Assembly: GCA_963834385.1 (NCBI GenBank)
Contig: CAWIBO010000005.1
Coordinates: forward strand, 96,001-160,000
Reading direction: 5' to 3'
From: an uncultured Verrucomicrobiae bacterium
GTDB taxonomy: Bacteria; Verrucomicrobiota; Verrucomicrobiia; Chthoniobacterales; UBA10450
Length of the DNA stretch: 64,000 nucleotides
The position numbers are program-made. Every line of letters begins with the position of its first letter. Within the stretch, counting starts at the first letter, position 1. Positions 24,001-33,000 of this stretch are shown piece by piece.

Positions 24001-27000
24001 CGATCACCGGGCCGCCAAATGAATGTTCCGTGAACGGATTGAAGAGATAGAACGCGTCGTAGTGGGAAAAATCGACCTCGAGCATGTTGGCGTGGCGGAA
24101 GGTGACGTTCTCCAGGCGGAGCTGGGTGGCTGTGGCCCGTGCGATCCTAATCAACTCTGCCCGTTGCTCGATTCCGGTGAAATGGCCGGCGGTGGACGCT
24201 GCCCCGGCGAGACAGAACTTGCCCGGGCCGCAGCCCACGTCGAGGACACGGCAGCCGGGGCGATCGACCAGCTCGCGCGCCGCCGCCGTGGCCACTTCCA
24301 GGGGAGTCCAAAAAGTCTTCGAGAGGGCGCGGAGATGTTCCGGATAGAGCGCATCGAACGATCGGTCGTCGACCGGAAAGGCTGTTTCCGTCGTGGTCAC
24401 GGCAGACGAAGGAATTCGCGCACGGTCCCGGCGAGCAGTTGCTCCGCCGTGCCGGGCTCCAGGTCTCTCATCGACTCAATCAGCGCCCCCGGCCGTGCTT
24501 CGCCGAGCGGGAACGGGTAATCCGAGCCGAGGGCGATGCGTTCCGCGCCGAAAAGCTCCAGGAGCATGCGGAGCGCCCCGGCGTCGTGCACCAGCGAATC
24601 GACATAAAAGTGCGCCGGGCGAGAGACGCCCCCTACCTCCCGCCGCAGGTAGGAGCGGGGATTCACCTGGTTATCGACGGCAACAAGGTCGGGCCGCACG
24701 TGGAAGGCGTGCTCGAGCCGGCCGATGGTAAAAGGGAAGCCGCCGCCGCCGTGCGCGAAGGCGACGCGCAACTTCGGGAAACGCTCGAAGACGCCGCCGA
24801 ACATCATGCTGCAGATGGCGAGCGCGGTCTCGGCCGGCATCCCGACCAGCCAGGGCAGCCAGTAATTTGGCATGCGTTCCTTCCCGACCATGTCCCACGG
24901 GTGCACGAAGATGGCGGCGTCCAGCTCCTGCGCCGCGCTCCAGAAGACATCGAGGGCGCGATCATCCAGGTTGCGGCACCCGCCCGGATGGCAATGAACA
25001 TTGGCGTCGAGGTGCGACCCGATCTGTGCGCCCCGCAGGCCGAGTTCGCGCACGGCCCGCTCCAGTTCGCGCGCCGCCCGTTCCGGGTCCTGCAGCGGCA
25101 CCGTGGCCAGGCCGGCGAATTTTTCGGGGAATGCGCCGACGATTTCCGCGAGGTGATCGTTCAGGAAGCGCGCGAGATCAGCGGCGTCGTCTGGTTTGGC
25201 CCAGTAGGAGAACATCACCGGCACCGTCGACAGGACCTGCATGGCCACACCGGTTTCCTGCATCTCTTCGCAGCGCCGTTCCGGGTCCCACGCGTTCTCG
25301 CCGATCTCCCGGAAGAACCGGTCACCGATCATCATCCGCGCGCAGCACGGTTTGTGATGCTCGAGGCGGACGAACCCGGGATAGCCATAGCGGGCGTCGA
25401 GATCCGGCCATTCCCGCGGGAGAATGTGCGTATGGAGATCGATTTTCACGGGCCGAAAGAGCTATTTAGCCCGCCCGGACGGCATCGCACCAGAAGAGAA
25501 TATTGTCGGCGCTGGACAAGGCGCCCGGGGCCGGGCAGAGTGCCGCGCCCGATGATCACTCGATCCGATTCCCAGCTCCAGCTTGCGGCCGGCACGGTCC
25601 GCCCGGGAATCGCCGGATACTGGCGTCGCTAACGCCAGCCCGCAGAGAAGCGTCCGTCCGCCTGGTGGACGCGAACCACTGCCCAGAGACCATCCGCCGC
25701 GGCCGGCCCGGCTGCGGGAACTGCAATCCTTTGTCCCGTTTTTTACCCATGTCATCCATTCCATCCTTATCCGCCGCCCTCGAGCTCGACAGCGCCGATC
25801 CGCTGGCCGGGTTTCGCGAGCGCTTTTATCTCCCGCCCGGCCAGATCTACCTCGACGGTAATTCGCTGGGCCTCCTTTCCCGCGAGGCCGAGCAAACGCT
25901 CATGGAGGTCTTCGGGAAATGGAAAACCGGCGGCATCAGCGGCTGGCTCGAGGGTGAGTCGCCCTGGTTCACCATGGCCGAGACCCTGGCCGCGCGCGTC
26001 GCTCCCCTCGTCGGCGCCGCGGCGGATGAGGTGGCCCTGGCCAATTCCATGACGATCAACCTGCACCAGCTCCTGGCCACGCTCTATCGCCCGGAGGCGC
26101 CGCGGAAGAAGGTGTTGATCGACGCGCACAGTTTTCCGACTGATCGCTACGCGCTCCGCAGTCATCTGCGTCTGCGCGGGCTCGACCCGGAAGAACACAT
26201 CGTGATCGCGCCGGCGGGCCGCTCGCGGTTCCTGGACGAGGATGAACTGGTGCGCGCGCTGGCGCAGCCCGGCCTGCAAATGGCCTTGTTGCCTTCCGTG
26301 GTTTACACCACCGGGCAGTTGCTCGATCTGCCGCGGCTTTGCCGGGTGGCCCGCGAGCACGACGTCATCATCGGGCTCGATCTCTCGCACTCTGTCGGCA
26401 TCCTGCCGCACGCACTGGATGAATGGGGCGCCGATTTTGCCGGGTGGGGCCACTATAAATGGTTGAACGCCGGGCCTGGCTCTGTCGCCGGCCTTTATCT
26501 GAACCGCCGGCATTTTGCCGCCAACGGCATGGTGGACGCCGGGCTGGCCGGCTGGTGGAGCGTGCACAAGGAAAGCATGTTCAACATGTCGGACGAATTT
26601 TTTCCGGGTCTCGGGGCTTCGGCGCTGCAGATCGGGACGCCGGCCCTGTTGAGCATGGCGCCCATCGGCGGCGCCTTGCGCCCGGTGGAGGAGGCCGGGA
26701 TCGAGCGGATCCGGGCCAAATCGATTGCGCTGACGGAGTTCATCATGTCGGCGGTCGAGCAGGAGCTTGCCGGGGAGGGTTTCCGTTTGGGGACGCCCCG
26801 CGAAGCAAAACGCCGGGGCGGTCATGTCTCCGTGCGGCATGAGCAGGCGCAGGCACTTTCGCTGGCCTTGCGTGAGCGCGGCGTTGTGCCCGATTTCCGC
26901 AAGCCGGATGTCATCCGTTTCGCGCCATCGCCGCTCTACAACACCTTTGCGGAATGCTGGGAAGCGATCGCGATCCTGAAAGAGATCGCGACCAGCGGGT

Positions 27001-30000: not shown

Positions 30001-33000
30001 GCTGCTCGGTCTCGAGTGCGTCATTTACATGGGAGAAGAGGATGCGCGGCGCCAGGAACCGAATCTCCATCGCATGCGCCTCCTCGGGGCCGAGGTGCGC
30101 CTGGTTTCGCAGGGATCGCGCACGCTCAAGGATGCCATCAATGAGGCGTTGCGCGACTGGGTCACGCACGCCCGCGAGACTTACTATCTTTTGGGGAGCG
30201 CGCTCGGTCCGCATCCGTATCCGCTGATGGTGCGGGAGTTCCAGAAGGTGATCGGGCAGGAGACGCGGGCGCAGTTCCGGGCCCGCGTTCGGCGCAATCC
30301 GGATGCGCTCGTTGCCTGCGTCGGCGGCGGCTCCAACGCGATCGGATTCTTCCACGCTTTTCTCTCCGATACCGGCGTCCGCCTGCTCGGCGTCGAGGCC
30401 GGTGGAAAGGGGAGCGGGCTTGGAGAACATGCGGCCCGTTTCCGCAAGCGGGGCGGGGGACGCCCCGGCGTTTTGCACGGCACCCACAGTTACGTCCTGC
30501 AGGACAAGGCCGGGCAGATTGCGAGCACGCATTCGATCTCCGCCGGGCTCGATTATCCGGCGATCGGCCCGGAGCACGCCTTCCTGCGCGACCGGAAGCG
30601 CGTCGAGTATGTCGCCGTGGGTGACCGCGCCGCTCTTCAGGCCTTGGAACTTCTTGCCCGGCTGGAAGGAATCATTCCCGCGCTCGAATCGGCCCATGCG
30701 GTCGCGCAGGCTCTCCTGCTCGCGCCCACCATGTCGCGGCGCCAGGCCATCGTGGTCAATCTCTCCGGCCGGGGCGACAAGGATCTCGGCGCCCTCTCTG
30801 CGCCGCCGGTCAGGACGGGCCGGTTATGAGCGTTTTGCGTGACAGCTTTGCCGCCGTGCGCGCTTCCGGACGTCACGGGGTCATTCCGTTCCTGGTCGCA
30901 GGCGACCCCGACCTCGCCACCACCGGCAGGCTGGTGCGGGAACTGAGCGCGTTGCAGCCCGTCGCGATCGAGATCGGTGTTCCCTTCAGTGACCCATCGG
31001 CCGACGGCCCGGTGATCCAGCGCGCTTCCGGCCGGGCGCTGCGTCGCGGCACCACCCTGGCGAACGTGCTCGAGCATTTGAAAAAGACGCGAACAGCCGC
31101 GCGGGCTCCCCTGGTTCTGTTCACCTATTACAATCCGTTGTTGCAGCTTGGTCTGGCCAACTTCGCCGGGAAAGCTGCGCGCGCGGGCGTGGCCGGTGTC
31201 CTGGTGGTCGACCTTCCGGCCGAGGCGGCCGGCGCCCTGCGGGGCCATCTTTCCCGGAAAGGCCTCGACCTTATCCTCCTGGTCGCGCCGACCACCTCGG
31301 CGGATCGGCTTCGACAGATTGCGCGGACCGCTTCCGGTTTTATCTACGCCGTGGCTCGCACGGGGGTGACCGGTAACACCCGCGGCCACTCCGACGAATC
31401 CGCGGAACTGGTAGAGCGTCTTCGTGCTCTGACGTCTCTCCCTGTGGCGGTCGGCTTCGGGATCAGGACCCGGGCCCGGGTTGGGCAGGTCTGCCGTTAC
31501 GCCGACGCCGCGGTGGTCGGCTCCGCCCTCGTGGAAACGATTGAGAAAGCCTCGGCCGGTCCCCAAAAGGCCCGACGGCGGTGACGTCGTCGCGCAGGCG
31601 ATGCGGTATGCGCGGACGCTCTTCTAATCGCGGAACGGCTTCACCGGCTCCGGTTTCGGCACTTTGTGTCCGCAGTTTTTGCAGGTGCGCCGGGCGTCGT
31701 CGTTCCAGAAATCGAGCATGGCCTTGCTGAACGCCTGGACGATGTCGGCACAATCGAAATCGATGTCTTCCACCAGCGCCTCGCATTTTTCGCAGTAAAA
31801 GATGACGTGCTCGTGCTCGCCGGCCGGTCGGCGGCGCTCCACCACCAGCCCGAGCGTGTCGGGCGGGCGCACCGGCGCGTGCGGGACATTCGGTGGAATG
31901 AAAAAGGTTTCACCCTCGCGCACGAGATGATCGACGATGTGATCGCCCTCGCGGATGCGCACCTTGATATCGCCTTTCAGCTGGTGGAAAAACTCCTCGG
32001 AATCGACCTGGTGAAAATCGTTCCGGGCATTTGGTCCCTTGATGATCATCACGAAAAAATCGCGGCCATCGTAGAGATACTGATTGCTCACCGGCGGCTT
32101 GAAGTTGTCCCGGTTCTTCTCCACCCAGCCCATCAGGTCGATGGGCGCCTGCACGGAGGAACCGGTTTCCGAAGGGGAGGCGGGAGCGGCGACGGCGTTG
32201 GCCATGAGAAAAGGCTAGGGAGAGCCGGGGGGCGGCGTCAAACCGAAGCGGACTCCGCCGCTTCGCGGACAAAGAAAAACCGCGCATGACCTTGCGGCCA
32301 TGCGCGGTTTCGCGCGTTCAGGAGGGAAAGCTTAGCTCTGGCGGGTCTGCTCAGTGCCGGTTCCCGGCGTGTGCTGGCCCGGCGTGTTCGGGCGGCCCAT
32401 GTCCTTCTGCTCCTTGCCCTTTTCGGTCACCGGAGTCTCGGGCTTGGTCTGATGTTCCTGCGGCTTGTTGGTTTTCGGATCGTTCATATTTGTTCCCTTT
32501 CCTTTTGGTTATGAGCCGGCTTTCACTTGGGCGCTTTGGAGACCAATAGTATCAAAAATGCGCCATTTCCGGCCGGCTCGCGGCCTCCTTAAATATCAAA
32601 CCCATTCCCGAGGGGGAACGGGCTAATGACCAATTATAGGCCTGAAACGCCGTTTTGGCAAGGGCTCAGGGCTAAAAAAGCCAAATTCTATCGGGTTTTC
32701 GCGATTTACCCGGCTGCTCCGCCATTGGCGATCGACTGGCCTTAAAACTAGGCCAAGTCGCGCAGCGGTCGCCCGGACCGGCCCCGGAGCACCGCCATGA
32801 TCTCGGCCAGCACGCTGATCGCGATCTCGGCCGGCGCGTCGGCCCCGAGGTCGAGCCCAAGCGGCGCATACACCCGCCCGAGTTGCTCCGCGGTCGCGCC
32901 GTCGGCCCGCAGCCGGTCAAAGACCATCCGCACTTTGCGCCGGCTTCCGATCATCCCCAGATACCCAAGGCCGGAAAGCGGCAGCGCGGCCGCCAGGGCT

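Follow-up and report, generated by a model that had tools for sequence, protein, structure and literature searches.

The kynureninase-headed tryptophan operon in the 64,000-nucleotide window analysed here, which belongs to a genome of 5 contigs and 89.6% completeness (G000), is very probably a tryptophan salvage operon in which the original head has been swapped for a kynurenine-preferring kynureninase (KynU2), with a Trp leader apparently in control. The genome-wide survey's note had proposed that kynureninase replaces anthranilate synthase in this operon, and the proposal is supported by a residue split between the two kynureninases of the cell, by the Trp leader and by the co-occurrence pattern of KynU2 with trpA and TrpE among related genomes.

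Operon organization and flanking genes

The operon reads kynU-trpD-trpC-trpF-trpB-trpA at positions 25749-31584 on the plus strand, in the order and within the limits that the survey's note had given, and each of its genes matches an NCBIfam or Pfam family. The operon kynureninase gene kynU2 (25749..27041; TIGR01814, 320 bits with a cut-off of 246) is followed by trpD for anthranilate phosphoribosyltransferase (27038..28150; TIGR01245, 386 bits), trpC for indole-3-glycerol phosphate synthase (28147..28956; NF001377, 277 bits, and PF00218), trpF for phosphoribosylanthranilate isomerase (28953..29615; PF00697, 130 bits, only the Pfam match having passed while the NCBIfam match stayed below its cut-off), trpB for tryptophan synthase beta (29612..30829; TIGR00263, 587 bits) and trpA for tryptophan synthase alpha (30826..31584; TIGR00262, 241 bits). 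Upon sequence inspection all five gene junctions were stop/start overlaps (ATGA or GTGA, with GTGA joining kynU2 to trpD), and these overlaps imply a predicted co-transcription of kynU2 with the trp genes. Comparison of trpA tails with those of relatives suggests that its final helix runs on in another frame to about position 31627, the frame change being probably an assembly indel. Neither a PRPP synthase nor a transporter was seen inside the operon.

Genes of the kynurenine pathway lie on both sides. Divergent from the operon is an amidohydrolase gene (24397..25449, minus strand; PF04909), probably ACMSD from its context, the homologues of which adjoin hao and kmo in other phyla, and convergent with trpA is the gene for 3-hydroxyanthranilate 3,4-dioxygenase (hao/nbaC; 31624..32205, minus strand; TIGR03037 above cut-off). 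Farther away in the window are a plus-strand FAD monooxygenase gene (15277..16587; PF01494, with VioC as best NCBIfam match but below cut-off), probably encoding kynurenine 3-monooxygenase since its homologues sit beside the second type of kynureninase in relatives (H/S-N, see below), and kynB for kynurenine formamidase (45229..45867, plus strand; TIGR03035, 212 bits with a cut-off of 223; a homologue matches PF04199). Tryptophan dioxygenase (TDO) and KynB are both present, as the survey's note had recorded. The genome possesses nadA as well as nadC, and the presence of nadA weakens the idea that a loop through kynurenine exists to supply NAD from Trp.

Kynureninase residues and the Trp leader

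The second kynureninase of the survey's note was also recovered: KynU1 (contig C5, 45871-47151) is 38.9% identical to KynU2, close to the 39% noted. Alignment to the sequences of solved kynureninase structures (PDB 1QZ9, 3E9K, 2HZP and 7S3V), which align with KynU2 at the preference residues, placed W66, G296-T297 and the PLP lysine K237 in KynU2, so that Trp and Thr occupy the sites equal to human H102 and N333. By contrast, KynU1 has H and S-N at the preference positions, as in the 3-hydroxykynurenine type. W102 and T333 are named in PMC11329768 as conferring kynurenine specificity on kynureninase; the same source shows that kynurenine activity does not depend on the W/T motif and that the motif on its own does not suffice. 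Every family KynU2 with these positions covered carries W/G-T, and all KynU1 seen carry H/S-N. Outside the family, kmo, hao or acmsd was found within 6 kb of 24/28 H/S-N loci versus 0/52 W-type loci. In a phylogenetic tree KynU2 clusters with W/G-T kynureninases of Bacillota, other Verrucomicrobiota and Thermomicrobiales (SH-aLRT 100), and wide protein searches returned many close family homologues with a next shell near 50%. Judged from its residues, KynU2 would be a kynurenine-preferring enzyme, and the two paralogues apparently split salvage from breakdown within one cell. KynU2 is itself rich in tryptophan (9/430 residues, or 2.1%, compared with 1.4% in the proteome), an observation that counts against a use in starvation salvage; a Trp-rich KynU has been raised as an argument against starvation use in chlamydiae (PMC3937554).

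Upstream of kynU2 on the plus strand is a trpL-like leader ORF (25552..25632) with 26 codons, or 30 if counted from a GTG at 25540, one of which encodes Trp. It terminates as Y-W-R-R-stop 116 nt 5' of kynU2, and its pattern, TAYTGGCGNCGNTAA, occurs a single time in the whole genome. Such a leader precedes kynU in 11/16 kynU-trp loci versus 0/20 other loci, and in a fresh set it was found in 7/9 kynU2-trp loci versus 0/4 others, leaving 5/16 and 2/9 kynU2-trp loci with no leader. A Trp-ending leader also precedes all six aroF-trpG-trpE operons with full upstream DNA. The short ORF is conserved at 80-135 nt from the first gene, with one Trp codon in most leaders and two to three in several.

No classical pair of mutually exclusive terminator and antiterminator hairpins with a U-run was detected: the RNAalifold consensus reached -1.2 kcal/mol with 4 pairs and no covariation, this genome gave one weak terminator-like match versus 0.3 expected, and an Rfam search returned no relevant match. 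A C-rich, G-poor tract follows the leader (C exceeds G in 11/11 leader loci) and the genome has two rho genes, so Rho-dependent control of the operon would be possible on these sequence features.

Absence of anthranilate synthase and alternative readings

No match to the chorismate-binding domain PF00425 was found in this genome, whereas 14/14 control genomes were matched. A profile built from 29 TrpE sequences of the family and run unfiltered over six frames gave a best E value of 1.2, and family TrpG queries matched only other amidotransferases at 24-38% identity. These searches, together with an empty ancestral site described below, uphold for an assembly of this completeness the note's assertion that anthranilate synthase is missing throughout the genome. 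Its further statement that kynurenine and anthranilate are the sole routes to Trp goes too far, because indole can serve as a substrate of TrpB and Trp itself can be taken up.

The family used for comparison comprises 355 genomes of Udaeobacter-containing Chthoniobacterales, 54 of which bear KynU2, and the kynU-trp design is present in 30 of these 54. Among the 114 trpA-positive genomes KynU2 occurs in 17/20 without TrpE versus 9/94 with TrpE, and with the richest genus excluded the fractions become 8/10 and 6/90; since these counts treat kin as independent, P values drawn from them are overstated. The note's claim that all kynU-headed genomes lack a full TrpE holds for 16 of 20 kynU2-trpD genomes, but in three a full TrpE-type domain is encoded at another place, and one has a contig-end fragment. 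TrpE-type matches were found in 17 of the 54 KynU2 genomes (9 in the first 27 and 8 in the second 27), and KynU supplements TrpE rather than replacing it in some genomes. Directly upstream of operon-type trpD, 9/25 inspected loci carry kynU2 and 16/25 carry trpE. The idea that G120 preserves the trpE-headed state ancestral to the kynU clade was rejected because G120 nests inside the kynU-headed clade (support of 99/93 in the TrpD tree and 96 in a quick TrpA tree), a position that fits a swap back to a trpE head. A metagenome scan gave 5 loci only, mostly short.

These results could also be explained if KynU2 were the catabolic enzyme of a kynA-kynU-kynB unit, with trp genes inserted between kynU2 and kynB and outside anthranilate or indole as the real material for salvage. 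No trp gene lies beside KynU2 in 17/54 loci, many of which have the catabolic layout kynU2-kynB or tdo-kynU2-kynB, kynU2-trpCFBA-kynB occurs in G004 and G058, W-type relatives beyond the family often stand beside kynB and tdo, and acmsd and hao flank the operon, all in keeping with a catabolic origin. However, the Trp leader is positioned 5' of kynU2 and not of trpD, and was seen only where trp genes follow; kynU2 overlaps trpD in this genome; and KynU2 is present in 0/30 genomes without both trpA and TrpE, although TDO is present in 132/151 genomes. In addition, a search for anthranilate-degrading enzymes recognised none in this genome, where a single Rieske protein scored well short of the AntA/AndAc cut-offs and no HpaB family member occurred (anthranilate-CoA routes lay outside this search). 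A catabolic role of this kind thus appears unlikely.

A second alternative is that trpEG reside in the 10% of the genome missing from the assembly, as the completeness estimate, the number of contigs, the three kynU2-trpD genomes with TrpE elsewhere and the location of trpEG at more than one site among relatives would allow. By contrast, a trpE-trpG-aroF cassette is located between homologues of C3:199622 and C3:201842 in 6/19 relative loci inspected, and the corresponding stretch in this genome is contiguous, contains no N and lacks the cassette, so that the worry about an assembly gap is largely answered. The 16 TrpE-negative kynU2-trpD genomes moreover include G557 (2 contigs, 93%) and G025 (4 contigs, 97%), the sole PF00425 match of the latter being in a menaquinone cluster, and we give a missing assembly portion only a slim chance. 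That an unrecognised non-homologous enzyme turns chorismate into anthranilate, with KynU2 as a supplement, would agree with the retention of chorismate synthase and a DAHP synthase and with the three of 20 trpA-positive, TrpE-negative genomes that have no KynU2 (80-94% complete), but no gene that might encode such an enzyme accompanies the operon, and KynU2 presence matches TrpE loss so tightly that an extra enzyme is not needed, making this highly implausible.

Under the preferred reading of a salvage operon, an ancestor trpL-aroF-trpG-trpE-trpD-trpC-trpF-trpB-trpA would have had its chorismate-side head aroF-trpG-trpE exchanged for kynU2. Shortage of charged tRNA-Trp would stall a ribosome at the leader Trp codon and turn the operon on; KynU2, given its residues, would split L-kynurenine into anthranilate plus alanine; and the trp enzymes TrpD, F, C, A and B, identified by family match, would build Trp from anthranilate, PRPP and serine, with KynU1 serving the 3-hydroxykynurenine branch together with KMO, HAO and ACMSD/NadC. 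Kynureninase plus kynurenine is reported to rescue an E. coli trpE deletion (PMC11329768, PMC9191678). Because the loop through the cell's own TDO and KynB is closed and yields no net Trp, a gain would require kynurenine, formylkynurenine or anthranilate from outside, or a pool derived from times of Trp plenty, and we consider the outside source and the pool about equally probable as the dominant feed. More speculatively, and less likely than not, soil kynurenine and formylkynurenine from neighbours and oxidised protein may be a real Trp source. Members of this Chthoniobacterales family would then have dispensed with anthranilate synthase and would exchange a mobile kynU-trp cassette that senses Trp in order to tap that source, kynU and aroF-trpG-trpE being interchangeable heads.

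Comparison with known systems

The survey's note had likened the operon to a recycling design of parasitic chlamydiae, where the corresponding operon was reportedly first described by Xie et al. in 2002. The likeness holds for how it works, but not for gene order and control. Chlamydial trpDCFBA, as described in PMC3937554 and PMC10242142, lacks anthranilate synthase, and kynU makes anthranilate from kynurenine, so that trpD, C, F, B and A are together with kynU as the anthranilate maker in both. Here, however, kynU is the head in place of aroF-trpG-trpE, trpR is absent from the head and prsA from the tail, the opposite strand carries the flanking amidohydrolase gene and hao, and control appears to reside in a Trp leader peptide. 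In the chlamydial design the kynurenine is supplied by host IDO. The present genome has its own TDO, KynB and second KynU, and an intracellular life is not known for its family. Gene order and the sister trpE-headed operons suggest an origin independent of the chlamydial operon. According to a 2014 review (PMC3937554), kynU in a trp operon was known only from three chlamydial species, and no non-chlamydial kynU-trp operon appeared in the literature listings or abstracts searched. The present operon would thus be a second design beside the chlamydial one, behind its own Trp leader. Pathway predictors would call these genomes Trp auxotrophs or gapped, and the operon points to the precursor that is probably fed, opening a direct test by cultivation and isotope tracing for this largely uncultured family. 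If the more speculative reading of soil kynurenine as a Trp source is true, kynurenine or anthranilate would be a missing growth factor for these cells.

The leader resembles the trpL attenuators of the E. coli trp operon and S. meliloti trpE(G), for which ribosome-mediated attenuation is described in PMC6614838, in that the ORF is short and encodes Trp close to its terminus, and it is also found on trpE-headed operons of the family. It differs in usually having one Trp codon rather than tandem codons, and in the absence of a conserved intrinsic terminator. The Bacillus-type kynU-kynB-kynA catabolic unit, which leads from Trp to anthranilate, shares the W/G-T kynureninase, many examples being beside kynB and tdo. 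By contrast, trpD, C, F or A was near kynU in 0/80 distant, 0/7 phylum-level and 0/12 order-level loci; among these comparison loci, a trpB on the opposite strand occurs in one, and in two others trpEG is located at a distance of about 4.5 kb, likewise on the opposite strand.

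The kynU-headed operon and the loss of trpEG

Family matches place kynU, trpD, trpC, trpF, trpB and trpA on the plus strand at 25749-31584 of the window, and stop and start codons overlap at all five junctions, bearing out the gene order in the genome-wide survey's note, which had proposed that this kynU-trpDCFBA operon rebuilds tryptophan from kynurenine or anthranilate without trpEG. In the genome under study (G000; 2.91 Mb, 5 contigs, 89.6% complete), no chorismate-binding domain was matched, although one was present in 14/14 control genomes; a profile built on 29 TrpE proteins of the family and run unfiltered returned nothing (best E 1.2), and family TrpG queries matched other amidotransferases only. 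The reported lack of anthranilate synthase is thus confirmed for this assembly. Chorismate synthase, tryptophan dioxygenase (TDO), NadC and NadA are encoded. As claimed, TDO and kynurenine formamidase (KynB) accompany a second kynureninase, 38.9% identical to the operon enzyme (about 39% in the note), and the window also contains HAO, KynB, a probable KMO and a probable ACMSD.

Whether the absence reflects an assembly gap can be judged from gene neighborhoods. Of the 19 relative loci inspected, 6 hold trpE-trpG and a linked aroF between homologues of G000 C3:199622 and C3:201842, and three further loci share one of these flanks. The corresponding G000 interval is contiguous and N-free, without trpE, trpG or aroF, and its native trpA site is occupied by other genes. 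The absence of TrpEG is therefore most probably a loss rather than a gap, although other relatives keep trpEG at other sites. Across the family, kynU directly precedes trpD in 20 genomes. The claim that all such genomes lack a full TrpE holds for 16, including G557 (2 contigs, 93%), G025 (4 contigs, 97%; a menaquinone-cluster match and no other chorismate-binding gene) and the unpublished G135 and G524, and fails for G522, G541 and G545, which carry a full TrpE-type domain elsewhere; G019 has a contig-end fragment. In L132 and L133 (G025 and G049), the sole chorismate-binding gene sits in an isochorismate-type menaquinone gene cluster.

TrpA stops about 14 residues early (31555-31627), with a matching tail running on in another frame past a short homopolymer, and further genes are split at 18715-21124, 38027-39384 and C3:55016-58216; together these point to assembly indels. 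A methanethiol oxidase gene, mtoX (21291-23329; NF052453, 679 bits, over the cut-off), followed by a SCO1/SenC gene, suggests methanethiol oxidation in this lineage. A purine breakdown cluster (32748-45232; XdhC-like, uricase, OHCU decarboxylase, HIU hydrolase, allantoicase, allantoinase, xanthine dehydrogenase-like, adenine deaminase-like) lies between hao and kynB, and parts of it adjoin kynU2 in several relatives.

Two kynureninase types

Alignment to solved structures places W66 and G296-T297 of the operon enzyme (KynU2) at human H102 and S332-N333; the Pseudomonas enzyme has W64 and G281-T282, and the top match of KynU2, 7S3V, also has W and T. W102 and T333 have been reported to confer kynurenine specificity and H102-N333 to mark 3-hydroxykynurenine enzymes, the W/T motif being neither essential nor, alone, sufficient for kynurenine activity (PMC11329768). 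W/G-T occurs in every family KynU2 with these positions covered, and H/S-N in every KynU1 (the other paralogue) seen. Among 80 distant loci, kmo, hao or acmsd was nearby for 24/28 H/S-N genes versus 0/52 W-type genes. In a quick tree of 62 rows that excluded about half of the distant loci, KynU2 formed a single clade inside the W-type group, far from KynU1, and Candidatus Udaeobacter KynU grouped within the family's KynU1 clade. The two paralogues of G000 thus likely perform two jobs. An extra W-type kynureninase at L254 (G522), 50% identical to KynU2, has G-P replacing G-T; this genome also carries the kynU2-trp operon and TrpE.

Operon heads, leaders and distribution

KynU2 was found in 54/355 family genomes and 14/36 genera, 25 of the 54 in one genus. 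In an even sample of 151 family genomes (114 with trpA), it occurred in 17/20 trpA genomes without TrpE (8 genera) versus 9/94 with TrpE, kin not being independent and three MenF-type matches being counted as non-TrpE and the G019 fragment as TrpE; in 0/30 lacking both trpA and TrpE; and in one more whose operon is interrupted by a contig end. Removing the richest genus left 8/10 versus 6/90. The second 27 KynU2 genomes had trpA in 24 and a TrpE-type match in 8. TDO occurs in 132/151 genomes and KynU of either type in 134/151, so that breakdown is family-wide and KynU2 tracks biosynthetic genes. Three unpublished genomes, G476, G507 and G509, are tallied as having both KynU2 and TrpE, and G002, G007 and G014, also unpublished, enter background tallies; no conclusion depends on unpublished genomes alone. 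The 54 loci comprise kynU2-trpD (20), kynU2-trpC (4), kynU2-trpF (3), trpA-kynU2 (3), no trp neighbor (17) and contig-end cuts (7). A full stand-alone trpD is kept in 9/30 genomes without trpA and TrpE (G001, G033 and seven more), adjoining nadC in both inspected loci (L214, L215).

Directly upstream of trpD, all 25 operon-type loci inspected in this sample carried either kynU2 (9) or trpE (16), the latter as aroF-trpG-trpE-trpD-C-F-B-A. With the stand-alone TrpD of the family as root, the TrpD tree groups the kynU-headed genes in a clade (95/91) that lies beside a trpE-headed one (90/84), so the ancestral head was probably trpE. A trpE-headed operon in G120 nested in the kynU clade (99/93 for TrpD; 96 in a quick TrpA tree) fits a swap back. 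G135 is among the genomes in the trees. A TrpE-TrpD fusion of 856 aa occurs at L062:373-2943 (G100), and open frames of 761-1010 aa in G009, G115, G133 and G145 suggest the same fusion.

Upstream of kynU2, a short leader ORF (25552-25632) ends in Y-W-R-R-stop, a pattern occurring once in the G000 genome. Such leaders preceded 11/16 loci with trp genes after kynU2 versus 0/20 with none seen downstream (4 of these cut downstream; one additional locus had too little upstream DNA), the pattern being derived from this set itself. In fresh loci, including G524, leaders ending W-R-x were found in 7/9 followed by trp genes versus 0/4; of 8 further loci short of upstream or downstream DNA, two had a leader. 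Several leaders contain two or three Trp. By a loose rule that also gives chance matches elsewhere, a leader with Trp among the final codons preceded 6/6 aroF-trpG-trpE operons with full upstream DNA, and one of these leaders ends in Y-W-R-R-L-N. Between leader and trpD, kynU2 thus occupies the place that aroF-trpG-trpE has in relatives. No conserved terminator or antiterminator emerged in the leader regions; a C-rich tract lies 3' of the leader in 11/11 loci. The G000 genome contains two rho genes.

A possible salvage route

A 2014 review places kynU in no trp operon other than the chlamydial (PMC3937554), and the open-access literature, mainly at abstract level, yielded no other kynU-trp operon. 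The accessible text on an Udaeobacter genome lists Trp synthesis as incomplete, with kynurenine unmentioned (PMC7343977). Wider samples of W-type or H-type loci had trpD, C, F or A near kynU in 0/99. The kynU-headed operon is well supported by genomics as a variant of a known system.

What the sequences show is the gene set and its order, the lack of TrpEG, the split in active-site residues, the conservation of the leader and the co-occurrence pattern. On the route that they suggest, Trp shortage would turn the operon on, KynU2 would convert kynurenine to anthranilate, and TrpD to TrpB would rebuild Trp; E. coli delta-trpE reportedly runs this chemistry once it has a kynureninase and a supply of kynurenine (PMC11329768, PMC9191678). 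Cycling Trp through endogenous TDO and KynB yields zero net Trp, and a benefit would therefore require either a precursor from outside or a previously stored pool; control by the leader would separate breakdown and rebuilding in time. Against a salvage role, KynU2 is itself Trp-rich, a catabolic kynU-kynB layout is kept in many loci, and KynU2 and TrpE coexist in some genomes. TrpD is the evident anthranilate sink in G000, since neither anthranilate dioxygenase nor an HpaB-type hydroxylase was recognized there.

The TDO of G000 (C2:990486, away from the kyn genes) belongs to the longer of two family length classes (about 350 and 260 aa). A GbcA-like Rieske oxygenase, scoring far under anthranilate dioxygenase cut-offs, repeatedly adjoins acmsd and kynU2 (L096, L102, L108, L110 and others).
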